Shown piece after piece: positions 6,499 to 22,732 of a stretch of 64,000 nt of DNA. The notes below the pieces were generated by a model that was given only the letters and a program-made list of their open reading frames with translations, had not been told where the DNA came from and did no database searches. The position numbers and the translations under genes were made by a program. Origin of the DNA: Candidatus Latescibacterota bacterium. GTDB taxonomy: Bacteria > Krumholzibacteriota > Krumholzibacteriia > WVZY01. Location: the NCBI GenBank assembly GCA_963791045.1, contig CAWBQK010000013.1:52694-116693 (forward strand), read 5' to 3'. Each line of letters starts with the position of its first letter. The first letter of the stretch is position 1.

Positions 6499-6637
6499 AT
6501 GAATTCCCTTTCTGATTCAATCGAGAAAATATCAATCGGCATAGATCTCATACCAATTGTGTATAGCAATAATAAAGTATGTTTTGGTAACGAGTTCAAG
6601 CGGCAAGGAGACTTTTGGCGCGTTGCGGGTGAGTTCT

Positions 6638-9600
6638 TTATTTCACAATCACCCTGTATACCAGCTCGCCCGTCTCCCCAGGCGCTAGAACATAAGCTGA
6701 ATTTCTGGAGAAAGTGACGCGAAGGAGCCGCTCGCTCACACTGTACTCGCATTCGTCACCGTCGGCCGGGTCGAGAGTGAGATATTCGACGGGCGCGGCA
6801 TCTTTGTGCCACTCGACATCGAGACCCGCGCCAAAAGCGTCGCTCATGGGATCGACGAACGCTGAAACAGCATCGAGTATGAGAACACTCTGGACACTGT
6901 CCGCGCCGGTGTTTGTGTAGGAAATGGTGTAGGTCAAAACATCGCCCGGTTGCGCTTCGTCCAGGTCCACCTGTTTTTGCAGGACGAGCAACCCGACGGT
7001 TCCGTCGACAACGAGCACGGCATCCGCCGCCTGCGCGGTCGCGACGAGCGGGGTACCTCCGATTGACTGCACCGCGTCGATCAACACCTGATGGGTCGTG
7101 CCCGGCGTCGATGACGTCGGAACAAAAACGCGGAGGAACAAATTCACGTGATCGCGGCCGGCGGTCGGATCCATGTCGAGGTCACCCGGCTGCAACGCGC
7201 GATCGGCGCCATCGAACACACCGTTCCCATTTTCGTCGAGGAGGAACATCGTAACCACGCCGGAGTCCGCCGCGGCGGATAGCACAACGGCTCCGCTCGT
7301 CCCCGCGTCCAGCCGGTGCGGGAAGTCGACATACGACCCCGCGACACCGTTCAGCACGGCGCCGGTAGACAAACGAATTCCAAGAACATCGGCAAAGTTC
7401 ACAGTCAGGGTATCCCCCGCGTCGACGGTAGCCGGACCCACCGTATCGGGCGAAATCGAAACGAAACCGGGGAGATTTTGTTCAAACAACGTGATCGGCG
7501 CACCGCCGCCGTTGACAAAGGTAAACCGGCCGTCGCCGCCCGTGACCAGAGTCAACCCGCTGTTGTTCTCGACAACCGTCACCCCACCGATGCCGGCTTC
7601 GCCCGGATCATAAATGCCGTCGTGATTTTCATCGTCGAACACGATACCCGTCACGACCGCACCCGTCTGCGTCACCAGTCTCACGCTCTCCGGTGAGTTC
7701 GGCGGCAACGACGAATACGCATTGATGATCGAAGGAAACACTCCCGCCACCGCCGTCACGGGCACCTGAACATCAACAGTAAAATTCAAGGACCCACCCG
7801 CGCCGATCATGGTCGTCCAGAACGGACCGCTGTAGCTTGCAAAACCGTCACTGAGAACAACGCTCCCCGCGGGCCATCCCGCCGGAAGCTCCCAGTACAC
7901 GTAAAACGAATCGGCAAAGCTTCCAACATTCCGGGCTTCGAGAAGAGCTGAGTAACTCCCGCCGGCATTTGCCGGACGAATGGATTGACCGCCGTCTCCG
8001 GTGCCGAGTTCGCCAAAGATTCCCGACCCGCTGCCGTCGATGATGAGATCGATTCTCGGAGGACCGACCACGGTTATTCTTGCCTCGACGCTTTCGACCA
8101 CGGTGGGATCCGAGTCGGCGACAACGTCGATCACATAAGAGTAGTCGCCGGGGAACGCACCCGAGGGAAGAACAACCTCGAACGTATACAACCCAGTGGC
8201 GCCGGCGGGAATCAAACCGGTCGTGTACGGCGTCGAGCTCGAATTGAGCGCGGCATTCCAGAAGGGAATGTCGTTCCACGTAACCGTGTATTGATCCGGG
8301 TCGCCCCCTTCGTTCTGAAGCTCGAGCGTAAAGTTCAAAACCGACGGCGCCGCCTGCGTCTGAAGCGACAGCCCACCGCCCCCGCTGCCCAACAAACCGA
8401 AAACGCCATCCCCGTTTCCATCGATCACCGCATCGACAACCGTCACCGGATACACCTGAAGCCGGCCCAACACGCTGTCCATGTAGTATCTGCGATCTGA
8501 TTTCTCCGCATCGACGATAATGTCGACCAGACCACCCGTCGCGTCGAGGGGCACTACGGCCTTGAGCTCGTATACGCCTTCGGGATAACCGGCAACGGGC
8601 GATGTGCGGTTATCGAACGTCACGCGCCAACCCGGCGGCGTGTTCCACGAAATGTCGGCCGCGTCCGCGCCGCTTGGATGCAAAAGTTCCACGATGAATG
8701 TAACGGAGTCGCCCGGCGCTACGGTCCGAAGCGAGTTGCCGCCAAGCCCCGTTCCGACCGGCCCAAAAACGCCCTCACCGGACCCATCGATAATCATGTC
8801 AACCTGGCCCTCTTCGGTGATGCTCACCGCGGCCGTGACACTTTCCGACACGCGCGAATCCACGCCCGACTCCGCATGAAGGAATGAACTCCATGTCCCG
8901 TTCTTCGCATTGCCGGGAACGATAATCTTGAGTTCGACACTAAGCTCCCCGTGCGCGGGAATAGTCGCCGTCGTGTATGGGAAGGAGTAATCGACACCGC
9001 CGACAACAAGGACGGCTTTCCAGTTACCCGTCGGACGATCCCACGTCAGGGTGAAAGCATCGCTCACGCCCGCCTCATTCTGGATCGTTACGGGAAATAC
9101 AACTTCTGTGCTTTTCTGGCTGACACTCGAACTCGAACCACCCAATCCCGACTGGGTGTCGTCATAGATACCGTCGCCGTTCGAACCGACGATCATGTCC
9201 ACTCGCGGCGCATCGAGTCTCAGTGTGGCTTCGATCGAGTCATTCTTCAACGGGTCCTGGATCACGGCGGCGGCGACAATTGTCGAGTAATCGCCACCCG
9301 TCTCCGGGCTGGGCACAGTGACTTCGAGCGTCATCACGGCAGTCGCGCCGGCGGCCACAATCTGTGTGGTAAACGGCGACGAATAGGTCGCGCCCGCATA
9401 AACGATTTCCGAAACCGCGCCGGGGTCGGCCGCCCAGGTCACATCAAAAGTGGCCGGCGCCATTCCCGTATTCCTCAACTCGATCGCATAGCTCACCGTG
9501 TTGTTCCACACGTCGGTTTGTATCGAGAATCCGCCCGCGCCGTCATCACCAACCACACCAAACCCGTTCCCCTCGACGGCCATATCGGCGCCATAAGTGG

Positions 9601-10669
9601 CGAGCAGCACATCGGCGCCCAGATGCACGCTGTCGTACCGGTTGCCGAACGTTGCACTGGCAGCGTCGAGCGTGACACCATAGCTTCCCGCCGCCGCGCC
9701 GACAGGCGCGACCACAACAACGCGGTAGTCCGCCGTCTCACCGGGCGAGAGAGTCCCGGTTGTGAACGGGAACGCGGAGAGGCCGCTACCCGTATCGAGC
9801 CACACGTCCCAACCAGCGGGAGGCGTAACCGAAAGTTCATAAGTGTCCGCGTCAAGACCTTCGTTCTCCACGCGGAGATCATAGAAAATCGTGTCGCCGG
9901 GCAAGGCGCTCCAGATCGAGAATCCGCCCCCACCGGATCCGATCGCGCCGAATTCGTCATTACCGTTTCCATCCACGGCGAGGTCGACAAATTTCCGAAA
10001 GATAACCGACACATCGTCGACATACGACCACGTTTCCCAGAGATGATCGTTGGTATTTGCCTGCTGGAAGTAAACGCGAATCGTCTGCCCCGCATAGGCG
10101 GACAAGTCGAACCCGGCGGGCGCGACGCCATCGTCGCTAAACCATCCGCTGTCCTTGAAAATGTAACTTGGGTCTGTGAACATCAACGACAACACCGACT
10201 CCAGCGTGTTGTTCGCCGTGTCCCTGATCTCGGCGTCGAACGGATCGTACGGGTCCGTGTCATAACCCTGCTGCCGGACCTGGTAGGACAACGTGGCGAT
10301 GGAGATGTCCGCCGGAATCGTGACGTCCTGATACATAAAGCCGACGGCGCTCTTACGTTCGCGCGAGTACTTGAATCCCAGCCGCGCCGAGTAGCTGCCC
10401 GTGTAAGGCATGTCGGGAACAACGAGATGATCGGCAAGCGCAGGATTGAAATTGGTCCCGCGGAATGCGCCGTGAACCCAGTACGGCCCGAAGTCGCCGG
10501 TCTCGAATGACCCGTTCTGGATTAGCTCTCCCGCGAACGCGACATGGGGAATCAGAACCAGCCCGATGATCACGAGACACACGGCGGCGCACACGATTCC
10601 GGAGTTTCCACTCCGGCGCTCCACGCCGTTTACTGCCGTTGAAATATTCATCCTAGAACTTGTAATCAT
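6638..10669 (-). CDS. giant secreted surface protein with N-terminal CBM4_9-like domain, six tandem Ig-like repeats, SdrD-B-like domain and C-terminal DUF11 (OmcB-like) module
   Basis: 1343-aa ORF with signal peptide (IVCAAVCLVIIGLVLIPHVAFA). NGSFETGDFGPYW is the CBM4/9 hallmark. Six ~130-aa repeats share (V/I)DGxGxGxFG..G.GGxS...ELxNxG...W..P.GW. DENHDGIYDPGEAGIGGVTV is SdrD_B-like. The C-terminus TYTISYTNTGADSVQSV is DUF11. Start could be 10651. Confidence 0.85.
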   Translation of the reverse strand: MITSSRMNISTAVNGVERRSGNSGIVCAAVCLVIIGLVLIPHVAFAGELIQNGSFETGDFGPYWVHGAFRGTNFNPALADHLVVPDMPYTGSYSARLGFKYSRERKSAVGFMYQDVTIPADISIATLSYQVRQQGYDTDPYDPFDAEIRDTANNTLESVLSLMFTDPSYIFKDSGWFSDDGVAPAGFDLSAYAGQTIRVYFQQANTNDHLWETWSYVDDVSVIFRKFVDLAVDGNGNDEFGAIGSGGGGFSIWSALPGDTIFYDLRVENEGLDADTYELSVTPPAGWDVWLDTGSGLSAFPFTTGTLSPGETADYRVVVVAPVGAAAGSYGVTLDAASATFGNRYDSVHLGADVLLATYGADMAVEGNGFGVVGDDGAGGFSIQTDVWNNTVSYAIELRNTGMAPATFDVTWAADPGAVSEIVYAGATYSSPFTTQIVAAGATAVMTLEVTVPSPETGGDYSTIVAAAVIQDPLKNDSIEATLRLDAPRVDMIVGSNGDGIYDDTQSGLGGSSSSVSQKSTEVVFPVTIQNEAGVSDAFTLTWDRPTGNWKAVLVVGGVDYSFPYTTATIPAHGELSVELKIIVPGNAKNGTWSSFLHAESGVDSRVSESVTAAVSITEEGQVDMIIDGSGEGVFGPVGTGLGGNSLRTVAPGDSVTFIVELLHPSGADAADISWNTPPGWRVTFDNRTSPVAGYPEGVYELKAVVPLDATGGLVDIIVDAEKSDRRYYMDSVLGRLQVYPVTVVDAVIDGNGDGVFGLLGSGGGGLSLQTQAAPSVLNFTLELQNEGGDPDQYTVTWNDIPFWNAALNSSSTPYTTGLIPAGATGLYTFEVVLPSGAFPGDYSYVIDVVADSDPTVVESVEARITVVGPPRIDLIIDGSGSGIFGELGTGDGGQSIRPANAGGSYSALLEARNVGSFADSFYVYWELPAGWPAGSVVLSDGFASYSGPFWTTMIGAGGSLNFTVDVQVPVTAVAGVFPSIINAYSSLPPNSPESVRLVTQTGAVVTGIVFDDENHDGIYDPGEAGIGGVTVVENNSGLTLVTGGDGRFTFVNGGGAPITLFEQNLPGFVSISPDTVGPATVDAGDTLTVNFADVLGIRLSTGAVLNGVAGSYVDFPHRLDAGTSGAVVLSAAADSGVVTMFLLDENGNGVFDGADRALQPGDLDMDPTAGRDHVNLFLRVFVPTSSTPGTTHQVLIDAVQSIGGTPLVATAQAADAVLVVDGTVGLLVLQKQVDLDEAQPGDVLTYTISYTNTGADSVQSVLILDAVSAFVDPMSDAFGAGLDVEWHKDAAPVEYLTLDPADGDECEYSVSERLLRVTFSRNSAYVLAPGETGELVYRVIVK
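7819..9994 (-). repeat. six tandem ~390-nt coding repeats (Ig-like modules) inside the giant surface-protein gene
   Basis: Six consecutive protein-level repeats beginning (I/V)DG(N/S)GxG(V/I)FG and ending ..W..P.GW. Confidence 0.55.
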
Positions 10670-13600
10670 TGAACATCCAGTCAGAGAGAATCAGTTGAAC
10701 CCTTATGCCAAATCCTTTTTGCCACGCGTCGTTTTCTGAAAGATCCCGATCTTCGAATCCGCCGACACTGTACCCGGCGCCGATCCTCACGCGATCGAAG
10801 AAGAGATAACCGAGCTCGGCGCCCGACCCGATCTGCCTCGTCCCAACATCGACCTGCCCGAGGAACCGCACCCACAAATCCACGTCCCAGTTACGGGCAA
10901 ACCGGAACACGTACTGGGACAACAAGAGATAGTTGCGGCTCGTCTCCGAAATTCCCGTGCTGTAATTCTCGACACGTTTCGCGGCGAGTTTGAAACGCAA
11001 TTCGTGCGCGTTGTGCGGTATCACGTTGATATCCGTCGACGCGATCAGCTTCCACACGATCGCCTCGGGATCCACCGGCGAGTAGCGGTCGTACTCGGTT
11101 CTCAAGAGGAAGAGAGACCGGAACGGGGTAACCAGCGGGCGGTACACACCGGCGAGCCGGCCGTCCATGCGAAGCGACGTCTCCCGGTCATCGAATGTTG
11201 AAATCGATATCGCATCTTTAAAAATCACCGACATACCCTTGTCAAATTCTTTTCCCGCATTGAGCTTCAACACATGACGGTTGGACGCCCGCTGCCAGCG
11301 GTATTCGTATTGGGCCTCGACGAGCGACTTGCCCCGCTTGATCCGGTTGAGCCCCGTCTTAACAGCGACATATTCGTCGTCGACCTGGCTTGAGAACGAC
11401 CGGTACCCCTCGATATCAAACATCGCGGCGAGATCCCAGGTGATCGGGAACGTTTGTTTCATTCCCATGATTGTTCCCATTCGCTTGTCGTTCGCCGTCC
11501 GGTTCATCGCGTACTTCGTATACAGCTTCGAATTCTGACCCGTCTGCGCCTCGATGCCGGTGAGCAGCTGGTGGGTCGCAGGCCGGTTGTGCGCCGACAA
11601 GTACTCGTGCGTCGCCACGACCCGGTATCTCTGGAGGAAGCGGTACGACAAAGCCGAAGTCAAACGGTCGGGATACTCATCGACAATATCCGCGCCCTGG
11701 TTCCGCTCCCAATGCGTCCGAAGTTCCGCGCTGCGGCCGGCGCGGACGCCGGCGTCAAGCATGGTGAGAAAACTGCTGCTCTCGATACTTTCCTTGTCCT
11801 GCGTCGCCGCCCTGAGGCCCGCGCCAAACATCAGGGTCTTCCCTTCGTACTTTCCAAGCACGTCCACATTGCCAAGACGGTCGCCGCTATTGTCATTCCG
11901 GTGTTTGAAACCGTGCGAGTCGATGGACAGGTCGTTGCTTATTCTCAAGTGCGAGTCAAACCCCGCCTTTTCGCTGTAAAGCTCGCGCGAAGCTCCGGCA
12001 AACGACGGGTTGAGGAAATTGCCGTCGACCTTGCGGAGATAAACCGAGTGCTCACCCATGAGTTTTTTCGTGCCCGCCATCACGCGAAACGCGTTGCCTT
12101 CGCCGGCGATGTCGTCCTCGCTTCGAGCAAACTCGCCCCCCAGATCGAGCCAGCCTATCGAGTATCCGCCATCGAAGCCGTAGAGCGAATAATCCGAAAG
12201 ATGCCCGTCCTTGGCGATCGCGGTCACGCCGAGCTTGAAACGGCCGCTCTGTGCCAGTGCGCCTCGGATCCCGTAGAGATAGTCTCCCTCTTCCGACGAT
12301 TCCGCCTCGTAGATGGCGACGATCCTTACCGGGTTCAATTCGCGCGTGAATGCGGGAATCGGCTCTTTGAAAAGAATCGCGCCGTTGAAATAGTTGACGG
12401 TGAAGTCCCGATGTTCAGTGAGGGGCCTGATCTCTAGAATTCTCTCGGACTGGTAGCGGTCGCGCACCTGGAGCATGAGGTTTACAGAGTTTTCCACGAC
12501 GGGCGATTTCGACAGGAAGTAGAACCCGCTGGTGCCGTCACCCTGGATTTCATCCTGGACGGTAAAGAAATCCGTTTTGGTCACGAACGCTTCGACACCG
12601 GCGTTCCCAGAAACGATGGCGCCGTTGAGGCCGGTGGCTGATTTCTTGTAGGTGAGAAATTCTCCCTCGGTAAACGGCGACCGGAAGTCTCCGTATCGCA
12701 AGAAGGACTGCCCCTTCTCGAGGGCGATGTAATTGCCGCCCTGCGCGGGCGCCTCGTAGTGAAGCTCGGACGCGTCGCCGTACGCCGTGTACTGACGCTC
12801 GGGGTTGAAAGTCTGAAGGAGCGGATCGTCGTAGCGCTTATCGGTGTCGATACGCGCGGTCAAATTGATTCCCGCGTACGACGTCCCCTGGATAAAGAAA
12901 CGCGACTCGCCTTTGAATCGAACACCCTCGTAGTAATCTTCGAGACCCAACGGATCGCCGCTCCCCGATGAGCTGAAAGCGCCGAGACGCCCCTCGATGA
13001 TTCCCGACATAAACATCGACCGGTGTGCCGGAACAAAAGCGACAACACATGTCGCCCTGTAACCGTGCGACTCGACGACAATATTCCGGCGCCCCGTTGT
13101 CAGGCTCGGCCGGATGTGCACGAGGAACTGTCCGTTCTCGCTCGAAATCTGCAGGCCGCGCTGATCCGGATCTTCGTCGGAGTTAGTAACAAGCGAATCG
13201 CCTTCGATCACGGTGGCTATGAGACCGTTTATCGTCGGGAGACCGAGTTCGTCGCGGAGTTCGACCAGAATCGTCTCGCGTGACTGCCCGTCCGCGGGAA
13301 GGATGACACGATCGGGCACTATCGCGATATCCACGGGTTTGCCCGCGAGCGCGACCGACACGCTGTCGACAATCGTTTCGGCTCCATTGACGGGGGTCGC
13401 TTCGAGTCGAGGCGTGTTCCAACCGTTCTTGATGCGCACGGCGTAATAAGTGATCTCTTCGAATCGTTCGTCGAGATGGATTTCTTTTTTACCGATCCGG
13501 TCCGCGGGAACGAGTTCGTCACCGCTGAACAATTCGTACTTGCTGCCCAGCGGGACCCGGGCCGTGACTTCGATCTGGTCGCGCTTAATCACAACCGATC

Positions 13601-13976
13601 GGTCGGGCGGGTCAAGGAGTCCGAGCGCCTTTACCTTGTCCTGGCCGCCGCGTTCGTCCGGCGGACTCTGTTCAGCATCGCCGGCAACTCCGTTCGCTCC
13701 GCCAACGGAATAACTCGCCGTGCTGTCCCCGGGGGCAAAACCGACACCGGCGGCGCGCAAACGCATGGCGAGATCTTTGTCCTCTTCCCACGAAACCAGC
13801 GTGTAATACTCCGTCTCTTTGCCGCCCCATCCGTGGGCGAATGGCTCGAGGACGACCGTGGAATCGAGCCACGATGACGAAGCGTCGGGAACGTCCGGCC
13901 ACGCGGGCTCGGTAATCGACCGGTTTGCTTCACGCCACGGGACTTTGCGGCTCGTGCTTGTCTCCACGCTTCCCAA
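10653..13976 (-). CDS. large predicted outer-membrane beta-barrel protein (family unassigned), C-terminal ...NDYKF
   Basis: 1107-aa ORF with long alternating amphipathic beta-strands and a C-terminal aromatic residue (F), typical of OMPs. No signal peptide. The first start is TTG, only 12 codons after an in-frame TGA that ends the upstream OmpA-domain ORF. Start and independence are uncertain. Confidence 0.7.
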   Translation of the reverse strand: MGSVETSTSRKVPWREANRSITEPAWPDVPDASSSWLDSTVVLEPFAHGWGGKETEYYTLVSWEEDKDLAMRLRAAGVGFAPGDSTASYSVGGANGVAGDAEQSPPDERGGQDKVKALGLLDPPDRSVVIKRDQIEVTARVPLGSKYELFSGDELVPADRIGKKEIHLDERFEEITYYAVRIKNGWNTPRLEATPVNGAETIVDSVSVALAGKPVDIAIVPDRVILPADGQSRETILVELRDELGLPTINGLIATVIEGDSLVTNSDEDPDQRGLQISSENGQFLVHIRPSLTTGRRNIVVESHGYRATCVVAFVPAHRSMFMSGIIEGRLGAFSSSGSGDPLGLEDYYEGVRFKGESRFFIQGTSYAGINLTARIDTDKRYDDPLLQTFNPERQYTAYGDASELHYEAPAQGGNYIALEKGQSFLRYGDFRSPFTEGEFLTYKKSATGLNGAIVSGNAGVEAFVTKTDFFTVQDEIQGDGTSGFYFLSKSPVVENSVNLMLQVRDRYQSERILEIRPLTEHRDFTVNYFNGAILFKEPIPAFTRELNPVRIVAIYEAESSEEGDYLYGIRGALAQSGRFKLGVTAIAKDGHLSDYSLYGFDGGYSIGWLDLGGEFARSEDDIAGEGNAFRVMAGTKKLMGEHSVYLRKVDGNFLNPSFAGASRELYSEKAGFDSHLRISNDLSIDSHGFKHRNDNSGDRLGNVDVLGKYEGKTLMFGAGLRAATQDKESIESSSFLTMLDAGVRAGRSAELRTHWERNQGADIVDEYPDRLTSALSYRFLQRYRVVATHEYLSAHNRPATHQLLTGIEAQTGQNSKLYTKYAMNRTANDKRMGTIMGMKQTFPITWDLAAMFDIEGYRSFSSQVDDEYVAVKTGLNRIKRGKSLVEAQYEYRWQRASNRHVLKLNAGKEFDKGMSVIFKDAISISTFDDRETSLRMDGRLAGVYRPLVTPFRSLFLLRTEYDRYSPVDPEAIVWKLIASTDINVIPHNAHELRFKLAAKRVENYSTGISETSRNYLLLSQYVFRFARNWDVDLWVRFLGQVDVGTRQIGSGAELGYLFFDRVRIGAGYSVGGFEDRDLSENDAWQKGFGIRVQLILSDWMFNDYKF

Positions 13977-14012
13977 ATCCGCCCGCGTACTCGAACCACC
14001 ATACGAACTCGA

Positions 14013-16589
14013 TCATCCGCCCCCGTGTCCCCGACCGTCGAGTTGAATCCGACAACGGAACGAATCTCGCGCACCCGATGCGTGTCGGACGCCGCCGCGG
14101 TAAACGACACCTTGCACTCGATTCCGCGCGATCGGGCAAATCCACCGACGACATATCGGCCATCGACTTCGGCGATCCTCCCCGCCGCACGTGACGCGCG
14201 TCTTTGCGTCATCGAACACATCCGGGATTTCGAGCGCGAGATCAATCTCGACCGGGATTATCGCGTCGGAGGAGATTCCCCAAATCACAAACACGTGGAA
14301 CGAATCGGCGACGGTTGTCACGTTACTCATGTCGGCTTCGACACGGTCGATTTCCGCATGGTCCTCGACACCGGTTCCCGGCGGAACAAAACTGACCTCG
14401 ACACGACGGTTCTCTGCGCGGCCTTCGCGCGTCGTGTTCGTCGCCACCGGCGTAGTGTCGCCGTGGCCTCGTGCGACGATCCGCTCTTGGGGAATCCCTT
14501 TGGCGGACAGATACCGCTTAACCGCGCCGGCACGCGCCTCGGAGAGTTCCTGGTTCGAAGCAAATTCCGCGTTGTGGATCGGAATGCTGTCGGTGTGACC
14601 TTCCAGATAGACGATCCAACCAGGATTCTTCTCGAGAAATTCGACAATCGGGTTGAGATAGTGCAGCGTCCCGGTTTTCAGATACGATTTGCCGATTTCG
14701 AACAGCGAACTTGGAATTGACGGCATCCGGTAAAGGGCCTGTTGTTGTTTCCGGATGCTCACCATTTCCTGGCAGGATATCTGACGCGACACCCGCGGCC
14801 TTTCGCGGGCCCGTTCGGGCATCGGGAATGACACCACCGCGTGGCCGCTGGGGATCATGTGGACCAACCGTTCGGTGCCGAACACTGCGTTGGTTTTTGT
14901 GGATATGGCCTCGATGTCGACGATGTCGGGCGCGAGCGTGCTTTCATCGATCCGGATTACACGAAAACCGGAAAACACCCACGGGACCGAGAAGCGCCCC
15001 GTCGAGTCGGTCAACGCGTACTCCCCGCTCTCGAGAAATACGCCGACCCTCGGGAGTCCCCTCTCTCCGTGATCACGCTTGCCGTTTTTGTTTGCGTCGA
15101 CAAACACATCGCCAAGGAGGAAACCCTCGTCACCAAACATATCGTTTGCAATCTTGAGCGCGTTGACCACGGGCCCCGCGTAAAGATTGCGCGCGAGCGC
15201 CGTGCCGACAGCGTTTCCGGTGATCTTCGTCCAGCCGTTCTTGACGCGACTGTTTGCGACAAACTTGATCACCGCCTGCCGGCGTTCCCCGGGAGCGAGT
15301 GATCCAACCTGCCATGCGAGGGTCTTTCCGTCGAGCTCAAAATCCGGACTCGAGAGAAACTCGAGTGTCGGCTGAACCGTTTCGTCCACAACGACATTGT
15401 CGGCGCGGACGCTGTCGCTCCGGTTGGCAACCGCGACAACCAGGGTGACGATGTCACCGAAGGCCGCCGTGTTTTCTTTGAAAGTTTGTTCGAGACTGAG
15501 AACCGCCGACGGGTTGAACGGTTCGGCAAGAACAATCCGGTCGATTGTTTCGTTCGTCCGCGTCGTGTCGAGGAGCGAACGCGCTCGCAGACGAATCGAT
15601 AACGAGTCCTGCCCGACGTGATAGAACGACTCATCTTCGGTGGTGACGTGAACTTGAAGCGTCCGTCTTTCACCGCTTTCCAGCTGACCGAGAAGCACCG
15701 CGCCCGAACTGGCAGGAACCGTTCGAAGCCCGTTGCCGGCGCTGTCCCGCACGGTTACCTGAACCCCGGGCGGCCAACCGGTCGAATCGGCGGGCTCGAT
15801 CCGAATTATGTCCGGATCGCGGCCATCGTTAAGAATTTCGTTTTCAAAAACAAGTGTCTGCGTCGACACTCCAACGCTGCGGCGCGTGACGTCATCGGGA
15901 CTACCCTCTCCGCCCGGCAACGCCTTCGCGTTCTCGAGCGGTCCGACGTGAAGCGGTTGGACTGGATCCGCCTGTGTGAGAATGTGAACAACGCTCGATG
16001 CCCGGCGCTCGAGCGTGTCGACACCCGTGGCCGCCGAAATATCGACATAACTATCCCCACCACCCTGCCCCGAAGTGAGAACGTACATCGTTCCCAGGTC
16101 CGTCGACTCTCCGGGCCCGAGGTTGAGGAAGGATCGGTCTTCCTCTCCGGGATCGAAAGCGGAATTCCCGTTCGAATCGTGATAGAAAACGACATCACTG
16201 ATTCCAATCGTCGACGCGGACAAGATCGCGTGATCGACCGAGATCGAATCGGCGACGTTCCCCAGGTTTCGCACCACGAAACCGCACTGAACGGTATCCG
16301 CCTCGAAACCGAACAGCGAATACGCGGGACTCGCTACCGTGCCGGCCGGCGTAAGCGAAATCTGGAAGAAAGGACCCACTGGTGTGGTCGCCGGATTGGA
16401 CCGAACGGCGTGTCGGAAGCCGTTCTGAGTGTACTCGGCGCTGGACTGGGAAATGATTTCATAACCAAGAGGCGGGACGGCGGCCTGCACGTTTTGCCAA
16501 ACAAAAAACACCCCTACGACGACCCAACACCATAACAGGCGCTTTAACAATGGGTTATAGGGATGAATTCTCACTTGATGATCTCTCAA
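14013..16589 (-). CDS. secreted protein with SdrD-B-like domain and OmpA-like peptidoglycan-binding domain
   Basis: Signal peptide (LLWCWVVVGVFFVWQNVQAA). DANKNGKRDHGERGLPRVGVFLESGEYALTDSTGRFSV is SdrD_B. aa 620-735 (WIVYLEGHTDS...NQELSEARAGAVKRYL...NRRVEVSF) is OmpA_C-like. The last ~60 aa are an R/G-rich, junk-like tail. Confidence 0.8.
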   Translation of the reverse strand: MRDHQVRIHPYNPLLKRLLWCWVVVGVFFVWQNVQAAVPPLGYEIISQSSAEYTQNGFRHAVRSNPATTPVGPFFQISLTPAGTVASPAYSLFGFEADTVQCGFVVRNLGNVADSISVDHAILSASTIGISDVVFYHDSNGNSAFDPGEEDRSFLNLGPGESTDLGTMYVLTSGQGGGDSYVDISAATGVDTLERRASSVVHILTQADPVQPLHVGPLENAKALPGGEGSPDDVTRRSVGVSTQTLVFENEILNDGRDPDIIRIEPADSTGWPPGVQVTVRDSAGNGLRTVPASSGAVLLGQLESGERRTLQVHVTTEDESFYHVGQDSLSIRLRARSLLDTTRTNETIDRIVLAEPFNPSAVLSLEQTFKENTAAFGDIVTLVVAVANRSDSVRADNVVVDETVQPTLEFLSSPDFELDGKTLAWQVGSLAPGERRQAVIKFVANSRVKNGWTKITGNAVGTALARNLYAGPVVNALKIANDMFGDEGFLLGDVFVDANKNGKRDHGERGLPRVGVFLESGEYALTDSTGRFSVPWVFSGFRVIRIDESTLAPDIVDIEAISTKTNAVFGTERLVHMIPSGHAVVSFPMPERARERPRVSRQISCQEMVSIRKQQQALYRMPSIPSSLFEIGKSYLKTGTLHYLNPIVEFLEKNPGWIVYLEGHTDSIPIHNAEFASNQELSEARAGAVKRYLSAKGIPQERIVARGHGDTTPVATNTTREGRAENRRVEVSFVPPGTGVEDHAEIDRVEADMSNVTTVADSFHVFVIWGISSDAIIPVEIDLALEIPDVFDDAKTRVTCGGEDRRSRWPICRRWICPIARNRVQGVVYRGGVRHASGARDSFRCRIQLDGRGHGGG

Positions 16590-16683
16590 GGATACAATCC
16601 GCCATATACGGGGCTGGCGGATGAATGGCTGAAGCCACTCATCCGCCTGCCTTGCTCAAATATTGTCCGTCTTGTCGGACGAA

Positions 16684-19386
16684 CTACTCGGCAATGATCC
16701 GAACTATAAAACTCACACCGGTTGCTGACGCTCCACCGGGTTCAAGAACTCCGGCGAGAACAAAACGCACATGCGTAACGTTCGCGTCGAAGTTGACCGG
16801 TGCACCGCCACCACCGCTGACCGGCGTGTACGTCCACGACGTACCGCCGTCATTCGAATACTGCGGCGTTACGCCGGTAATCGAAGCCGGTGGTGTGCCA
16901 GGGTCAACGGAACCGACACGGAACTGCGTGAACGCCGGAACCGCGTCTATGACCGCAAGGGTCTGAAGCGAATCCGTTCCGAGGTTCTGATAGTCCGTGG
17001 TGTATGTAAGCTCCGAGCCCGGTGTTTGCGGGCCCGCGGGAGCCACTGCCTTGGTGATCTGGAGATCACCGGCTGTTATCAACGTGATGTCGATCGCGTC
17101 GTCGCTCACGAGCGTGACGTTGCCTGTAGCGGTCAACGTGCCCGTCTCAACCGTTCCAACGGTCGCCGTACCGGGAACCATGACCTGAGCGATAACCGTA
17201 ACGCTGGCGCCGGGGTTGAGCGTTACATCGGCCAGAGGGTTGTTGAGCGTATCGTAGAACAGATACGTCCATCCCTGCGACGAGACGTACGACAGCGCGA
17301 ACGTATCGGCCACGTTACCGGTATTGGTTACCGTGTGCGTGTAGCGGATCGTCCCGCCGGGTGTCGTGCTCCCGTTCTGATCGGGAGAGAAATCAACCGC
17401 CGCAAAGTTGTTTATCGTAACTGTGTTGGCGATAGTGTCCAGAATGGTTCCGTTGGCAACCGAGGTCGCTGTAAACGACACGGGGTTGATACCCGGAGCC
17501 GCACCCGCAGGAACATCCACACGGGCGACGATATTTACCTCGGCTCCACCCGCGATCGGTCCCACCGATACCAGTGTCGTGGTTTCGCCGGGATCGAGCA
17601 CACCGTTGCCGTTGGGATCGTCGTAGAACGTGACGTTCCATCCCGCGGGCACCGCATAGGTGAGCGTGTAGGAATCGCTTCCCCCACCCGTATTAACAAC
17701 ATCGAGCGGGAAATCAACCGACGTCGCCGGGTCGGCGGGCAGATCCAACGGATTGTTGTCCGTGCCCGGACCGGCAAGGTAGTTACCGATGTCCACGCTG
17801 ACCGGCGTCACGTTGAGGACGCGATCAGTCGTAAGGTTGAACTCGGTTGGATCGATCGTCGACTGGGCACGGATAACCGCGTCAAACGGTCCGCCGGCAG
17901 CCTGGCTGCCCGGGATTACCAGTCGAACGATAATGTCGACACTGTCGCCCGGCGCAACGGGGCCCACATCGGGGAGTCCGTCAAAACCGGTATCGGCGAG
18001 CGGAGTCACGCCATCTGACTGGAGCAAAAGAACGCCCCAGGTGGCGGGAAGTGTCGACGCCGGATCGGTGAGAATATTGATCTGATCGGCGGCATTGCCG
18101 TCGTTTCTTACGGTATTGACGAAGTCCACGGTCGTGCCCGCATCGGCGTTGGCGAGAGTCTGGAGATCGTCGTTGTACAGGGGAGGCGTACCGGCACCGG
18201 CGTCACCGGCAGGACCGATTACGATGTCCGCGAGACCGCCGATGGTCACCAGCGCGTTATTCGAAACGATCGTTGTCGGATCCGGTGTCACGGCGGTGTT
18301 GTCGATATAGGTCACGGCCGCGGTGTTACCCAGTGAACCGGCGCCCATGCCGATCGGAACGGTCGCCTGATACACAAAGTTGTAACCCTGACCCGGAATG
18401 ATCGCGCCGTTGGTCACATAACCGACGGCAAGGTCGCCCGGCCCTGCTACGAGGCCCCAGTTCCATGTTTCGGGATCTCCAGCGGTCGACTCGCCGGCGG
18501 GAAGATAAAGAACCGTTCCACCCGCTGGCGTACCAAACGGCACACCGGAAATTGCGAGAGGATTTCCCGTCGAAGGATCGGTCGGAATAATATCCCAGAG
18601 CAACACACCGGTAAGACCAACGGAACCAACGGTTACGCCGTTCGCGTTGTTGTTACCCGTGTTTGAACCGGAAAGCGTGTAGGTTACCTGGTTGCCTTCG
18701 AATACGATCGCGGGCGCGGCGGCGAGATTGGCCGTCATTACCGCGTCGTTCACAACGTCGGTCCTGTGATAATTGCGTGTGTCGATCTGTGCCGCGTCTC
18801 CAACAGAGACACCGGTCACACCGACGTAAGCAAGTTCACCCGAAACGGCGGCCGCGGGCACTGTGTAGGCGACGATAACACTGATTGTCTGCCCGGCGGT
18901 GAGAATCCCCGTATTGCCCGAAATGCCCCCGGCGCTCAGAACGGGTTCACCAAGATCCACCATGCCGTTCGAGTTGAGATCGTGATAAATCGTGACATCG
19001 ACGTTGTTGAGCAACATTGTTGAATTCGCAACGTCAACATTGGGAGACAACGTAAAGTCATCGTCGTCATTACCCGTGTTGGTCAGATCGTATCTATAAT
19101 ATACGGTCATGCCGGGCAGTGCATTCTGAGCCATCGCCGGAGTCAGGGGAGGCGTTTCACCCGAATCATCGGGGAGAATCGACACACCAAACACCGGAAG
19201 AACGATGGTGATGACTTCATTTGATGTCGCGGAATAATTGTTCCCACCCATGTCCTGGTAGGTCGCAGATGACCGGTTCCGGATCTGCGTACCGGCAGGC
19301 GTTGCCTGCGCAAAGACAGTTGTTGCCGTGACCGCGACGATCAACAGCAACATCACGGGAAGGGTGATGTAGACTCGTCTACTCAT
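16684..19386 (-). CDS. secreted 900-aa surface protein with multiple Ig-like/DUF11 repeats and C-terminal DUF11 module
   Basis: Signal peptide (MLLLIVAVTATTVFAQA). Repeated YxDxNGNG.DPGE and TNTGN motifs. The C-terminus LTYTTDYQNLGTDSLQTLAVIDAVPAFTQF is DUF11. No T9SS CTD. Confidence 0.85.
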   Translation of the reverse strand: MSRRVYITLPVMLLLIVAVTATTVFAQATPAGTQIRNRSSATYQDMGGNNYSATSNEVITIVLPVFGVSILPDDSGETPPLTPAMAQNALPGMTVYYRYDLTNTGNDDDDFTLSPNVDVANSTMLLNNVDVTIYHDLNSNGMVDLGEPVLSAGGISGNTGILTAGQTISVIVAYTVPAAAVSGELAYVGVTGVSVGDAAQIDTRNYHRTDVVNDAVMTANLAAAPAIVFEGNQVTYTLSGSNTGNNNANGVTVGSVGLTGVLLWDIIPTDPSTGNPLAISGVPFGTPAGGTVLYLPAGESTAGDPETWNWGLVAGPGDLAVGYVTNGAIIPGQGYNFVYQATVPIGMGAGSLGNTAAVTYIDNTAVTPDPTTIVSNNALVTIGGLADIVIGPAGDAGAGTPPLYNDDLQTLANADAGTTVDFVNTVRNDGNAADQINILTDPASTLPATWGVLLLQSDGVTPLADTGFDGLPDVGPVAPGDSVDIIVRLVIPGSQAAGGPFDAVIRAQSTIDPTEFNLTTDRVLNVTPVSVDIGNYLAGPGTDNNPLDLPADPATSVDFPLDVVNTGGGSDSYTLTYAVPAGWNVTFYDDPNGNGVLDPGETTTLVSVGPIAGGAEVNIVARVDVPAGAAPGINPVSFTATSVANGTILDTIANTVTINNFAAVDFSPDQNGSTTPGGTIRYTHTVTNTGNVADTFALSYVSSQGWTYLFYDTLNNPLADVTLNPGASVTVIAQVMVPGTATVGTVETGTLTATGNVTLVSDDAIDITLITAGDLQITKAVAPAGPQTPGSELTYTTDYQNLGTDSLQTLAVIDAVPAFTQFRVGSVDPGTPPASITGVTPQYSNDGGTSWTYTPVSGGGGAPVNFDANVTHVRFVLAGVLEPGGASATGVSFIVRIIAE

Positions 19387-19396
19387 AGTCCTTACC

Positions 19397-19888
19397 TCAC
19401 TTGATTACCGTTCTGTACGTTACAGTGATGCCTTGTTTTGGCTGGACGGGCTCCGAGAGAGCCCAACGGAGATGCGTCACCATGTCCGGTGTTGCCTCCA
19501 CCAATTCTTCCTCGCCGTTCTCGTTCGTCTGTTTGACGAGAATCGGCCAGGCCTGGTACGTTTTTCCTCCATCGATGCTGTACTCCACGTCGCCCGTTTT
19601 GAGCTCGGTGGCTGACGGATGGACGAATTCGGTACCCAACGGGATTCCGTCCGTTATGAAAATATTCTGTATGGGCTGGTCGCCGGTGTTGGTGTAGGTC
19701 AACCGATATTCAATTGTATCGTTTGGCCTCGCGTTATCAGCGGGAAGAAAATCTTCCACTCCCTGGTCGGTAACCACCACCCGAAAAGCCTCGAGACTGC
19801 CCGCCAGATCCCCCCCGGCGGCAAATGCCATCGATGCGGTCAATCCGAGAACAAGCAGAAACACCGCAAAGAAGCGCTTCTCTATCAT
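19397..19888 (-). CDS. small (164 aa) secreted DUF11-domain protein, first gene of the surface operon
   Basis: ORF 19397..20101 trimmed to ATG 19888, which is preceded by the perfect RBS AAGGAGG. Signal peptide (FFAVFLLVLGLTASMAFAAG). TIEYRLTYTNTGDQPIQNIFITDGIPLGTEFV is DUF11. It lies 10 nt upstream of the next gene. Confidence 0.8.
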   Translation of the reverse strand: MIEKRFFAVFLLVLGLTASMAFAAGGDLAGSLEAFRVVVTDQGVEDFLPADNARPNDTIEYRLTYTNTGDQPIQNIFITDGIPLGTEFVHPSATELKTGDVEYSIDGGKTYQAWPILVKQTNENGEEELVEATPDMVTHLRWALSEPVQPKQGITVTYRTVIK

Positions 19889-20147
19889 AAAGAGCCTCCT
19901 TAAAAACTCCGGTCCGTGGATAATTTGAAACGTCGCGGCGAGGATCGATGACGTACCGAGGGGTAAGATTTCTTCCCCGCCTGTCCGGTCAGGGAGACAG
20001 ATAGCAAGGAGTGAACCACCTATGAGAAGTGTCAAGGAACGATGACACCTCATGAGAAATCCCGCGTCGCTGTGGGGCGACCGACGGCGGTTTCTCCCCA
20101 ATCACGGAACGACGGGGTAATTCAAGACGCAACACGAACGCGCAACC

Positions 20148-20164
20148 CCTTGCAAGATGCAAGG
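20148..20164. promoter_or_regulatory. perfect 7-3-7 inverted repeat CCTTGCA-AGA-TGCAAGG in the divergent intergenic region
   Basis: It sits between the surface operon (start 19888) and the HK/NtrC operon (start 20236). It is a candidate regulator-binding site. Confidence 0.35.
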
Positions 20165-20235
20165 TTTCTGGCGAAGACACCCGGAACAGGCCGAAAAGTG
20201 TTGAATATTCTCCACCCAATGGCAATTATTTGGTC

Positions 20236-21300
20236 ATGGACTTACCATCGCGCGCATCAAGGTACAGGCTGGCAATAGTCCTGGTGGTGTCACTGGCGAC
20301 CGTGGCCTTCCATTACGGCCTCATCGTCAAGCCATCGGCGGGAGATGACGGATTTTTTCATGCGATACACGGGCGTCTCTGTTATATCCCGATCATCCTC
20401 GGCGCGATCTGGTTTGGGGTTCGCGGCGGCCTCGGAATCGCTCTTTTTATAACGGCGCTCACAATCCCATACGCCCGGTACGGCCCGCACGCCCAACACG
20501 GCGCGGCGATCGGCGAATACACCGAGATGATTTTCTATGTCGCGATCGGCCTCACGGCGGGGTTTCTTATCGAACTTCAAAGACGAGAACGTAAAAGGCG
20601 GGAGGAGATGGCCGACGAACTCGCCCGCCAGGAACACCTCTCATCGCTCGGGCAAATGGCCGCCGGTCTCGCCCATGAAATCAAAAACCCGCTCGGTTCG
20701 ATAAAAGGATCCGCCGAAGTCATTGGCGACGATTATCCCGAAGGCACGCGCAAACATGAAATCGTCGAAGTGCTTTCGAAGGAAACCGACAGGTTGAATC
20801 GCGTCGTGGAAGATTTCCTCAAATTCGCGCGGCCGCGGCCGATAAACAAAGAGATGCGCGGGTTGAACTTTCTGCTCGAGGAAGTCGTGTTGCAGATTGG
20901 AGTGGATGCAAACGCCCGCAACATCACAATCAAAAAAGACATCGACGTCGCACTTCCTGTGGCGCGGGTCGATCCCGAGAAAATGCGCCAGGTGTTTTTG
21001 AATATGCTGCTCAACGCCGTGAACGCGATGCCCGACGGGGGCACTATCCGTGTCGAAACCAAAGTGGACATCCGTGACGGCAAGAACGTCTTTCGCATCA
21101 CATTCATGGACGAGGGCGTCGGAATACCGCCCGAGGATGTCAAAAAAATATTCGATCCGTTTTTCACGCGGACGGACGGCGGGACGGGTCTTGGACTCTC
21201 GATTTCACACTCCATCGTCCAGGAACACGGCGGCCATATCGAGGTCGAACCCAACCACCCGCGGGGGACGTCGATTTCCGTTATCCTGCCCTTTAAATAA
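20236..21300 (+). CDS. sensor histidine kinase with membrane-embedded N-terminus (intramembrane-sensing type), HisKA + HATPase_c
   Basis: Four or five TM helices and no periplasmic domain. H-box LGQMAAGLAHEIKNPLGSIKG and N/G-box MLLNAVNAMPDGG...GTGLGLSISHSIV. ORF-track start 20230 is TTG. ATG at 20236. Confidence 0.9.
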   Translation: MDLPSRASRYRLAIVLVVSLATVAFHYGLIVKPSAGDDGFFHAIHGRLCYIPIILGAIWFGVRGGLGIALFITALTIPYARYGPHAQHGAAIGEYTEMIFYVAIGLTAGFLIELQRRERKRREEMADELARQEHLSSLGQMAAGLAHEIKNPLGSIKGSAEVIGDDYPEGTRKHEIVEVLSKETDRLNRVVEDFLKFARPRPINKEMRGLNFLLEEVVLQIGVDANARNITIKKDIDVALPVARVDPEKMRQVFLNMLLNAVNAMPDGGTIRVETKVDIRDGKNVFRITFMDEGVGIPPEDVKKIFDPFFTRTDGGTGLGLSISHSIVQEHGGHIEVEPNHPRGTSISVILPFK

Positions 21301-21311
21301 GAAAGCTGAGA

Positions 21312-22661
21312 ATGCCCAGGCCAACCATACTCATAGTCGATGATGACGCGAGCATCCGCAAAGTCCTCGGATTTATCCTCGAGGAGGCGGGCTATGCGAT
21401 TCGCACGGAATCGTCGGGCGCGGCGGCAATCGCGGCCATTGAGAGCAAACGGCCCGACCTCGTAATGACCGATATCAAGATGCCCGGGATGGACGGGATT
21501 ACGCTTCTCGGCGAAATTAAGAAAATCGACGACGGCATCCCCGTCATCGTGCTCACCGCGTTTGGCTCGGTGGAGACGGCCGTCGACGCCATGAAACTCG
21601 GGGCAATCGATTATCTCACGAAACCAATCAGCCGGGATGAGCTTACACTCACCGTCGAGAAAACGCTCCGGATACGACAACTCGAAAAAGAGAACGTGTC
21701 GTTAAAAGAATCTCTCGCCGACAAGTTCGATGTGGCGAACATCATCGGACACTCCCCCGCCATGCAAAGCGTATTTGAAATCGTCCGGAAGGTGGCGGCC
21801 ACGGACGCGTCGGTCCTGATAACCGGCGAAAGTGGAACCGGGAAGGAACTCATTGCAAGGGCAATTCACTTCAACTCCACCCGCAAGGATGCGCGGCTTG
21901 TCACGGTAAACTGCGCGGCGATTCCCGAGGACCTTCTTGAAAGTGAGCTTTTTGGGCATGTAAAGGGCGCGTTCACCGGAGCCATCAGGAAGAAGGACGG
22001 CAGGTTTCACCTGGCGCACAACGGGACCATTTTTCTCGACGAGATCGGATCGCTTCCCCGACCCCTCCAGGCAAAACTCCTTCGAGCGCTTCAGGAACAA
22101 GAAATCCAAAGGGTCGGCGAAGAAGAACCCACAACGGTCGACGTTCGTGTGATTTCAGCCACCAACCGTCCCCTGCCCGAGCTGATTCGCGACGGGGAAT
22201 TTCGCGACGATCTTTTTTACCGATTGAATGTCGTACCGGTCACCGTGCCACCGCTGCGTCAGCGCCGATCGGACATACCGCTTCTCGTCGATCACTTTAA
22301 GGGGGACGGAGGAAAGGTAACGTTCACCGCCTCGGCGCTCGCGGCGCTCGAGGAGTACGAATGGCCGGGAAACGTGCGCGAGCTGGAAAATTTTTGTGAA
22401 CGCATCGTGTTGATGTCAGGCTCGGGCACGATCGACGCCGCACCAGTACGGGAGCAGATCGAATTGATGAAAGCGGAACAAGCCCATATCGGATCACCGC
22501 AACAGGCAACGCTTCCCGAGGTGGAACGCCGCGCCGTGGTCGAAGCGCTTATCGACTGCAACTGGAACCAGTCGAAAGCCGCCCGCCGCCTCGGCATCCC
22601 ACGGCACGTTCTTCTCTATCGCATGAAGAAGTTCAACATCCACCGCGACCATTCCGACTAA
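21312..22661 (+). CDS. sigma-54-dependent response regulator, NtrC/AtoC family (REC-AAA+-Fis HTH)
   Basis: REC domain (LIVDDD...D at MTDIKMPGMDG). Sigma-54 activation AAA+ domain (GESGTGKELIARAIH, GAFTGA, ESELFGH). C-terminal HTH (NQSKAARRLGIPRHVLLYRMKK). Confidence 0.95.
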   Translation: MPRPTILIVDDDASIRKVLGFILEEAGYAIRTESSGAAAIAAIESKRPDLVMTDIKMPGMDGITLLGEIKKIDDGIPVIVLTAFGSVETAVDAMKLGAIDYLTKPISRDELTLTVEKTLRIRQLEKENVSLKESLADKFDVANIIGHSPAMQSVFEIVRKVAATDASVLITGESGTGKELIARAIHFNSTRKDARLVTVNCAAIPEDLLESELFGHVKGAFTGAIRKKDGRFHLAHNGTIFLDEIGSLPRPLQAKLLRALQEQEIQRVGEEEPTTVDVRVISATNRPLPELIRDGEFRDDLFYRLNVVPVTVPPLRQRRSDIPLLVDHFKGDGGKVTFTASALAALEEYEWPGNVRELENFCERIVLMSGSGTIDAAPVREQIELMKAEQAHIGSPQQATLPEVERRAVVEALIDCNWNQSKAARRLGIPRHVLLYRMKKFNIHRDHSD

Positions 22662-22732
22662 TAGCCCGGGACCATGATATACTGTTGAACCGCTCCCCGG
22701 AGACAAATACAACTAACGCTAATGGCCTGAAA

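Follow-up and report, generated by a model that had tools for sequence, protein, structure and literature searches.

A sigma-54-dependent envelope operon of Krumholzibacteriota/Latescibacterota pairs truncated CLIPPER domains with a predicted giant OmpA-fused beta-barrel: a candidate fibre assembly system

Results

An envelope operon under sigma-54 control

This report concerns an envelope operon on the minus strand of a 64,000-nt stretch of DNA (the window) from an uncultured Krumholzibacteriota/Latescibacterota bacterium. Five open reading frames (ORFs), A to E, follow one another in one direction (Table 1), with gaps of 10, 94 and 36 nt along A-B-C-D and an overlap of 17 nt between D and E. 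This layout, along with the AAGGAGG ribosome-binding site of A, had been described in a first-pass annotation of the sequence and holds up on re-reading, A being 163 aa long when counted from the ATG behind that site. As detailed below, C and D are parts of one gene so that the true unit consists of four genes, A, B, CD and E, which make up a sigma-54-dependent, co-regulated and conserved envelope operon. Newly observed here is a donor/acceptor syntax of split domains that runs through all four products and that, on our reading, might allow them to assemble into a surface fibre.

We regard an operon as sigma-54-dependent when it combines a -24/-12 promoter (GG at -24 and GC at -12, TGGCAC-N5-TTGC) with a cognate bacterial enhancer-binding protein. 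Both are present at this locus: a promoter precedes A, and the response regulator of the adjacent, divergently transcribed two-component system is of the NtrC type (Sigma54_activat, 242 bits). TGG-N8-TTGC is also found upstream of the A orthologue at 33 of 37 loci, against 0.025 expected per region, and a consensus scan revealed no enrichment of sigma-70-like sites at the operon. The kinase/regulator pair sits upstream of the operon in the closer orthologous loci as well (L001, L003, L006, L009-L012, L023, L026). Between the promoter and the terminator-like hairpin behind E there are only A, B, CD and E. The position of the operon is fixed across distant members of the phylum, with M1 aminopeptidase and DegT-type aminotransferase genes as neighbours (window 23809-27910; L001, L003 and L087, the last an independent assembly of the same organism). 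Given this fixed chromosomal position, the operon looks like a piece of the core genome and not like a mobile island.

Table 1. Features of the operon and its surroundings in window coordinates. Donor and acceptor designations are explained in the text. Ig, immunoglobulin; AF2, AlphaFold2; pLDDT, predicted local distance difference test.
Feature	Coordinates	Strand	Remarks
Gene A	19397..19888	-	163 aa; signal peptide and one truncated CLIPPER domain; acceptor only, no donor motif; ends ...GITVTYRTVIK
Gene B	16684..19386	-	900-aa string of Ig-like domains; donor peptide and acceptor domain; Pfam
Gene CD	10653..16589	-	one gene in orthologues; here broken by a TGA and two frameshifts
ORF C	14013..16589	-	858 aa
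ORF D	10653..13976	-	1107 aa
Gene E	6638..10669	-	1343 aa; signal peptide, ~190-aa head (GELIQNGSFETG...), Ig-like repeats, SdrD_B, terminal acceptor CLIPPER
Candidate donor peptide of B, QATPAGTQIRNRSSATYQDMGGNNYSATSNEVITIV	19201..19308	-	residues 27-62, directly behind the signal peptide
Candidate acceptor domain of B	16687..17079	-	residues 770-900; CLIPPER ending after strand 7, ...GVSFIVRIIAE; DUF11 profile 1-85 of 114
Candidate donor peptide of CD, AVPPLGYEIISQSSAEYTQNGFRHAVRSNPATTPV	16374..16481	-	C residues 37-72; Ser here where many orthologues have Asn
Complete internal CLIPPER domain of CD	15165..15500	-	C residues 364-475; DUF11 39.8 bits
SdrD_B/CarboxypepD_reg-like domain of CD	14997..15113	-	SdrD_B 21.7 bits, below the 29.7 cut-off; recurs in homologues
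OmpA-like peptidoglycan-binding domain of CD	14406..14705	-	C residues 629-728; PF00691 68.3 bits, E 7e-19
Two Ig-like domains ahead of the barrel	13032..13622	-	D residues 119-315; AF2 pLDDT 83-93
Predicted giant outer-membrane beta-barrel	10656..13013	-	D residues ~322-1107; ends ...NDYKF; AF2
Candidate acceptor domain of E	6641..7024	-	residues 1216-1343; ends ...GELVYRVIVK; DUF11 38.6 bits, profile positions 2-51
Sigma-54 (-24/-12) promoter, TGGTTCACTCCTTGCT	20003..20018	-	~115 nt upstream of the A start codon
AAGGAGG ribosome-binding site of A	19895..19901	-	sequence read
Terminator-like hairpin	6533..6559	-	11 pairs, then a T-rich tail; downstream of E; consensus scan only
Divergent two-component system	20230..22661	+	Pfam
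HisKA/HATPase_c sensor kinase	20230..21300	+	Pfam
Sigma-54-dependent NtrC-type response regulator	21312..22661	+	Pfam

C and D are parts of one gene

The first-pass annotation took C for a peptidoglycan anchor and D for a separate barrel, and hence arrived at five genes. The two are, in fact, one polypeptide. They share a reading frame that is interrupted by a single TGA (14013-14015) and, when joined across it, are colinear with single orthologues of 1904-1972 aa, aligning end to end with the 1,904-aa protein P0007 at 57% identity except for ~100 residues at the junction. Nearly all homologues of D are ~1,900 aa long and include OmpA and DUF11 domains, and the barrel ORF of nearly all complete Krumholzibacteriota/Latescibacterota loci encodes a fused protein, which measures 1,850-2,100 aa from stop to stop and contains the OmpA motif. 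At the junction itself, a tblastn search recovers the correct reading of 14164-14051 in another frame, where DGRYVVGGFARSRGIECKVSFTAAASDTH matches DGRSFHVGGFTKSRGIDCELCFTACEADTH, with the original frame back by 13862. Since the reading near the junction is correct only in that other frame, the sequence must contain two compensating frameshifts: one at or near a GGGG run at ~14180-14183, the other between 14012 and 13862.

As an ORF of its own D has no signal peptide, and a D that was truly split from C could therefore not reach the outer membrane. The remainder of the 5.9-kb CD gene is intact, which favours an error in the assembly, or a lesion of very recent date, over an old pseudogene. The contig of the independent assembly ends short of the C/D junction. 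For the frameshift at the GGGG run (window 13850-14210), a mistake in assembly and a new mutation are both conceivable, with slipped-strand switching a less likely third option. Split gene calls also occur elsewhere in the operon: the B gene, otherwise invariant, is annotated in two pieces (305 and 576 aa) in the complete Latescibacteria chromosome OY970173 (L003/L023, 7261-9961).

An OmpA-like domain fused to a predicted barrel with over 30 strands

The intact CD protein, of about 1,950 aa, consists of a Sec signal peptide, a two-strand peptide, a stalk of Ig-like, CLIPPER and SdrD_B domains, an OmpA-like domain, two further Ig-like domains and the barrel, in that order. Of the two domains originally assigned to C, OmpA is borne out by a PF00691 match that covers the full profile (1-98) and is accompanied by many OmpA/MotB/Pal matches in NCBIfam; SdrD-B stays below its cut-off, and C contains a DUF11 domain besides. 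The pair of Ig-like domains in D bears weak similarity to the C-terminal Ig domain of GH2 enzymes, with Big_1/Invasin_D3 appearing in homologues.

D had been described as a beta protein ending in ...NDYKF, and the AF2 model, which was built with 55 homologues (pLDDT 78; predicted template modelling score 0.63), agrees with that description in predicting a very large beta-barrel. Its N-terminus is modelled as disordered and corresponds to the frameshifted linker. Long antiparallel strands then continue unbroken from residue ~322 to ~1097, about 32 of them between residues 549 and 1097 and up to ~8 more upstream. D is accordingly modelled as a barrel of more than 30 strands and ~780 residues. 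There is no match to it in Pfam or NCBIfam and no relative in the Protein Data Bank (PDB), so that D has not turned out to belong to some characterised, unrelated family. SlpA is its best structural match, with no sequence similarity detected. TonB-dependent receptors, LptD, Omp85, ushers, SprA and PorP were considered and rejected: none gave a profile match, and the similarity is one of generic fold only.

Searching 1.84 billion cluster representatives (50% identity) with the barrel profile returned 4,840 proteins at E<=1e-3 and 2,229 at E<=1e-30. This large family is without annotation. Public records describe the parts of the operon system only as 'DUF11 domain-containing', 'beta strand repeat-containing' or 'OmpA family'. 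In most members the barrel is a C-terminal module of ~1,000 aa in a protein of 1,900-2,450 aa. Across the wider family it is paired repeatedly with OmpA and CLIPPER domains in variable order; in P0287 and P0291, for example, the barrel is N-terminal and OmpA follows, the reverse of the arrangement in the window.

Truncated terminal domains and orphan strands

A, B and E carry DUF11 at their extreme C-termini, as the first-pass annotation had proposed. PF01345 scores 25.1 bits in A, 25.4 in B and 38.6 in E (39.8 in C), all above the cut-off of 24.6, and TIGR01451 scores 47.5, 35.9 and 39.1 bits in A, B and E, respectively (cut-off 24). DUF11, once an unknown domain, has since been renamed CLIPPER: it has a CnaA-like fold, typically with an intramolecular Lys-Asn isopeptide bond, and fibrillar adhesins use it to build their stalks (PMC12617251). 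In its crystal structure, Lys715 on the first strand is bonded to Asn806, ~90 residues downstream in the same domain, with Asp748 assisting (PMC12617251). Because Lys and Asn belong to one domain in the crystal, a CLIPPER that stops before the Asn strand is incomplete, and an Asn strand at an N-terminus is an orphan. Both situations occur in this operon.

A, B and E end right behind the strand equivalent to strand 7 of the nine-strand CLIPPER. Pfam matches to the terminal domains extend only over profile positions ~1-85 of 114, and there the proteins end. The Asn strand is absent in cis, and the combination of Lys, Asp/Glu and Asn within one contiguous domain is thus not found in the terminal domains of A, B or E. 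In the AF2 model of B (pLDDT 83) the last domain has seven strands and the internal domain preceding it nine; the internal CLIPPER of CD likewise keeps its terminal strands (...GWTKITGNAVGTA...VVNALKI). Conservation of the isopeptide Lys and Asp reaches at least 90% in the acceptors of B and E, whereas A does not conserve them. The terminal domains also contain an extra insertion of ~30 aa (YS.DGG.TW...TH.RW). It is Asp-box-like, reading YSNDGGTSW in B (16750-16900) and YSIDGGKTY in A (19480-19560), and is followed by a conserved TH(I/V)RW strand; A-like proteins of other phyla keep the motif, which is a candidate for a substitute strand or a docking site.

Where, then, are the missing strands? 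The mature N-termini of B and CD correspond to precisely the two strands that the acceptors lack, including the isopeptide Asn (Ser in the CD of the window). Directly behind the signal peptide, orthologues of both proteins display the motif G-T-x-I-x-N-x-[AS]-x-A-x-Y...S-N-x-V, with either Asn or Ser at the key position in CD. In B this peptide is almost invariant among 31 unique orthologues, its Asn being invariant, and is the most conserved stretch of the protein. AF2 models it as a hairpin (strands 34-44 and 50-60) at a pLDDT of only 37-54, compared with 80-95 for the other domains; strong conservation together with low pLDDT is the usual signature of a segment that requires a partner. A strict version of the donor pattern is present in the first 90 residues of 39 out of 101 diverse full-length barrel representatives (background windows: 1.6%), and by eye the matches among these 101 exceed 39.

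Appending the B donor to the acceptor of A or E increases the scores of CLIPPER-type hidden Markov models (HMMs) by 5-10 bits. CLIPPER_2 (PF24346) rises from 21.6 to 30.1 bits on the A acceptor and from 20.9 to 31.1 bits on that of E; PF24595, PF25549 and PF01345 go up too, and when E is combined with an Asn-type CD donor, the DUF11 match crosses the junction and reaches profile position 98. Scrambled donor peptides bring no gain. The B acceptor gains little from the B donor, and the Ser-type CD donor of the window produces no gain.

Beyond their terminal domains, the three proteins differ considerably. The N-terminus of A is a short variable peptide, and its orthologues are almost always 163-164 aa long. 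B has 378 homologues; the 120 listed are 60-76% identical, and almost all of them measure 894-904 aa. It is the best-conserved protein of the operon, its best segment being 56-77% identical where that of D is ~30%. Such fixed length and conservation are unusual for an adhesin-like Ig-repeat protein and suggest a strict geometric role. A Foldseek search with the B model returned only generic multi-Ig proteins. E lacks a donor motif and is the putative tip. Its head, previously likened to CBM4_9, has no significant sequence match in Pfam or the PDB, and phmmer searches of PDB sequences with A, and with a chimera of the E C-terminus and the B N-terminus, gave no match.

Signal peptides in the operon end in ...SMAFA|AGG, ...TTVFA|QAT, ...NVQA|AVP and ...HVAFA|GEL, without Cys, and the C-termini ...TYRTVIK, ...VRIIAE and ...YRVIVK are devoid of LPXTG. 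As stated in the first pass, A, B and E are also without the C-terminal domains of the type IX secretion system (T9SS): neither type A (TIGR04183/PF18962) nor type B (TIGR04131/PF13585) matched at E<=0.01.

The donor/acceptor bookkeeping recurs in other phyla

Scanning a genome collection with the barrel alignment yielded 80 loci. The order A-B-CD-E is kept at every Krumholzibacteriota/Latescibacterota locus with enough flanking sequence, about 35 in all, an arrangement far beyond chance; the neighbourhood on which the first-pass proposal depended is therefore conserved. The layout recurs in Campylobacterota, Desulfobacterota, Fidelibacterota and Cyanobacteriota, where the barrel homologues are distant (22-27% identity) and the clusters around them show the same bookkeeping of donors and acceptors. 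Clusters from five phyla include an A-like gene.

A Sulfurovum cluster (L064), for example, encodes a 319-aa protein with donor and acceptor, a 150-aa A-like protein with an acceptor only, a 351-aa protein with donor and acceptor, a donor-bearing barrel protein of 1,334 aa and a second 351-aa protein with an acceptor only. An uncultured member of the Campylobacterales (L080) has the same set plus two head-bearing acceptor-only proteins downstream. In a Desulfobulbaceae cluster (L059) we find a 168-aa A-like protein, a 347-aa protein with donor and acceptor and a 2,101-aa barrel protein with donor; in one from Fidelibacterota (L062), a 567-aa protein with donor and acceptor, whose DUF11 at residues 471-566 spans profile positions 4-84, is joined by a donor-bearing protein of 2,117 aa and a separate barrel of 1,028 aa. 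A deltaproteobacterium (L004) combines an acceptor-only protein of 1,285 aa, two proteins with donor and acceptor (343 and 456 aa), a 164-aa A-like protein and a donor-bearing barrel protein of 1,924 aa. Finally, a cyanobacterium (L005) has two proteins with donor and acceptor (877 and 509 aa), a 187-aa A-like protein, an acceptor-only protein of 1,351 aa and a barrel without donor. Proteins that bear both donor and acceptor keep the acceptor Lys and Asp; A-like proteins often do not.

The cyanobacterial cluster (GCA_039025345, 4794-21649) has some further peculiarities. Its 1,693-aa barrel protein is without a CLIPPER domain as well as without the donor motif, OmpA is found on a separate 715-aa NosD/beta-helix protein, and the tip candidate contains GEVED and SdrD_B.

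Discussion

A possible route from split domains to a fibre

How might these parts fit together? We give an even chance to the idea that the operon encodes a modular surface fibre or adhesin along with its own outer-membrane base, the pieces being joined through split CLIPPER domains. From sequence logic and monomer models we infer strand complementation that runs from the tip (E or A) via B to the base (CD); insertion of the donor in trans, the order of subunits, the covalent lock, exposure at the surface and export through the barrel are inferred likewise. After Sec export, the donor of B would cap an acceptor-only subunit, which could be head-bearing E or the minimal A. This B would in turn receive, in its own acceptor, a donor from CD or from another B so that the fibre would read tip(E or A)-B(n>=1)-CD, with A acting as a cap, an alternative tip or an initiator. 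A complemented domain that has Asn, Lys and Asp could go on to close an intermolecular isopeptide bond, the donor Asn being locked to the conserved acceptor Lys, with Asp, of B and E much as in SpyTag/SpyCatcher. CD would anchor the fibre twice: its OmpA domain would hold on to peptidoglycan, and its barrel would sit in the outer membrane. This barrel would also be the most likely conduit for folded subunits, given that no known sorting signal is present in A, B or E and that fibre genes are linked to it, by fusion or adjacency, even in phyla that lack T9SS.

There are precedents for such chemistry in other folds. In BsaA, 'donor-strand exchange and lock' by an N-terminal Asn has experimental support (bioRxiv 10.1101/2024.11.04.621531), and donor-strand exchange and lock has been reported for archaeal threads (PMC9715654). 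That the operon represents a new class of diderm fibre, built by 'complement and lock' of split CLIPPER domains and both rooted in and exported through an OmpA-fused barrel of more than 30 strands, is a more tentative proposal, to which we give somewhat less than an even chance.

Several observations weigh against the fibre. Taken alone, the donor peptides match nothing in Pfam, for which they are too short. Three profile tests gave no usable signal either way: in hhalign, the B donor profile aligned with the complete internal CLIPPER of CD at a probability of just 0.2 and at the wrong end, HMMs made from the internal domains of B scored donor/acceptor chimeras at noise level, and the Sulfurovum barrel proteins that were to seed an HMM of the complete CLIPPER proved too heterogeneous to be informative. 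The CD donor of the window has Ser in place of Asn and A has Arg in place of Lys, so the covalent lock cannot be universal. Within the terminal domains, the ~30-aa insertion could itself take the place of the missing strands, in cis. Topology is awkward, too, with the OmpA domain placed between stalk and barrel. Note also that all sequences derive from metagenome-assembled genomes and that CD is interrupted in this one, where the system may be inactive.

Comparison with known assembly systems

The first-pass annotation had drawn an analogy with chaperone-usher pili (Fim/Pap), and the donor/acceptor syntax strengthens it. In those pili an incomplete Ig-like fold is completed by the N-terminal extension of the next subunit, and sequence logic, strand counts and the chimera scores suggest an analogous arrangement here. 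In both cases the tip subunit (putative here) has an N-terminal head and no donor strand, and subunits of graded size are encoded together with a dedicated large outer-membrane barrel. However, the domains described here are short of two strands rather than one, have the CnaA-like CLIPPER fold and may become covalently locked. Moreover, the barrel is predicted to have more than 30 strands, compared with 24 in the usher, and is fused to a peptidoglycan-binding domain and a donor-bearing stalk. Neither the usher family (PF00577) nor a PapD-like chaperone was found among the operon proteins in Pfam and NCBIfam.

With fibres of the BsaA/TasA family and archaeal threads, the operon would share an Asn-bearing N-terminal strand that enters a neighbouring subunit and is fixed to Lys with acidic help. 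Those fibres differ in fold (TasA/camelysin-like or thread subunit versus CLIPPER), belong to monoderm bacteria or archaea and lack both an outer-membrane barrel and an OmpA anchor. Fibrillar CLIPPER adhesins of Gram-negative bacteria such as Acinetobacter silvestris B9T28_05395 (PDB 9IFR) likewise combine a Lys/Asp/Asn CLIPPER stalk with an OmpA-like anchor in the same polypeptide (PMC12617251), but their domains are complete, with an intramolecular bond, in one giant polypeptide. Here, the terminal domains appear to be divided among different polypeptides, and a giant barrel is joined to the anchor.

The sortase-assembled pili of Gram-positive bacteria use CnaA/CnaB-type isopeptide domains, a covalent shaft, a tip adhesin and a base pilin, for which we propose counterparts here. 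In our case, by contrast, there is no sortase gene among the cluster neighbours and no LPXTG or pilin motif, and linkage would proceed via a shared domain, not by transpeptidation. Type V pili (FimA/Mfa) are a poor fit in that the signal peptides have no lipobox Cys and no FimA-family match was found in Pfam; nor is there a Pfam match to the 12-strand translocator of autotransporters (PF03797 or intimin-type), the barrel here having more than 30 strands by prediction.

The PorP-PorE part of T9SS has CarboxypepD_reg-like and OmpA_C-like domains associated with an outer-membrane barrel that holds surface cargo, and in this respect resembles CD. Yet CD shows no PorP/SprF signature, its barrel is several times larger, and the putative cargo is without T9SS C-terminal domains. 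Full-text literature searches found no description of a system of this kind. We rate it as lying outside all described assembly systems, with the mechanism itself evenly poised.

Alternative readings

One alternative is that CD is mainly an envelope tether or large porin linking peptidoglycan to the outer membrane, as SlpA of Deinococcus and OmpM of Negativicutes do, with A, B and E being co-expressed Ig-repeat proteins, secreted or at the surface, that act on their own. SlpA and OmpM, too, have a cell-wall-binding module ahead of a large barrel at the C-terminus; the pairing of OmpA and barrel, in either order, is the most constant feature of the wider family, and a fixed position in the core genome across the phylum is what one might expect of a tether. 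However, SlpA and OmpM rely on SLH domains and a coiled coil and have no donor/acceptor subunits, whereas CD has OmpA and Ig-like domains and no coiled coil, SLH is without a Pfam match in any operon protein, and the likeness to SlpA is confined to the barrel. A dedicated sigma-54 promoter and two-component system would be unexpected for a housekeeping tether. If CD were a tether and nothing else, the truncated terminal CLIPPERs, the invariant orphan strands of B and CD and the donor/acceptor bookkeeping in five phyla would all go unexplained. We therefore consider the tether unlikely, if worth keeping in mind.

Suppose instead that the N-terminal hairpins are completed in cis, by the first domain of B or CD or by B's own C-terminal domain, so that the proteins are monomers and there is no fibre. 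AF2 does give a beta-hairpin at residues 34-60 of monomeric B, the narrow profile tests did not place the donor on the missing strands, and the terminal-domain insertion could stand in for them. But the hairpin is near-invariant in sequence and is nevertheless the part of B that is modelled with the least confidence; CD is a donor without a truncated acceptor of its own, and A and E are acceptors without donors. If these domains were closed in cis, we would also not expect acceptor Lys and Asp to be conserved where the Asn strand is absent from the domain. Completion in cis strikes us as quite improbable. Much the same low probability attaches to a variant in which the fibre is real but crosses the outer membrane by the type II secretion system or T9SS, or is wholly periplasmic, the barrel being only an anchor or an unrelated channel. 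The two Ig-like domains, together with an insert at D residues 484-536, might serve as a plug in the lumen, the window contains an FG-GAP protein with a weak T9SS-like tail, and T9SS is common in the FCB group, of which the lineage is a member. Against such a route, neither a T9SS C-terminal domain nor any other recognised sorting signal is present in A, B or E. In thousands of family members the barrel is fused to fibre genes or lies next to them, and this includes Campylobacterota and Cyanobacteriota, which have no T9SS.

Implications

If the split-CLIPPER fibre exists as proposed, it would constitute a new assembly pathway, with no component homologous to the known machines, beside the few fibre systems of Gram-negative bacteria (chaperone-usher, type IV, curli and type V pili), and its barrel would rank among the largest single-chain outer-membrane barrels. 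It would provide a function for thousands of unannotated 'OmpA family' and 'DUF11' proteins of 1,900-2,400 aa, which occur in sediment, soil, vent and cyanobacterial lineages, and show how uncultured bacteria of the FCB group might attach to particles under sigma-54 control. Naturally split isopeptide domains could also find use as orthogonal protein-ligation tags. Even by themselves, the structural facts help annotation, as they correct the C/D gene model and define the barrel family.

Other features of the window

The FG-GAP protein (35519-37678) had been credited with a T9SS sorting domain; its matches are sub-threshold only (CHU_C 17 and Por_Secre_tail 15 bits, cut-off 27). Its C-terminus contains a FlgD_ig-like domain (32 bits), and its T9SS status is best described as suggestive. 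Between the response regulator and the M1 peptidase lies a 375-aa ORF (22685-23812) without a Pfam match, which overlaps the start of the peptidase gene by 4 nt. It is uncalled in the orthologous loci L001 and L003 and is a called gene, of 359 aa, in the independent assembly of the same organism.

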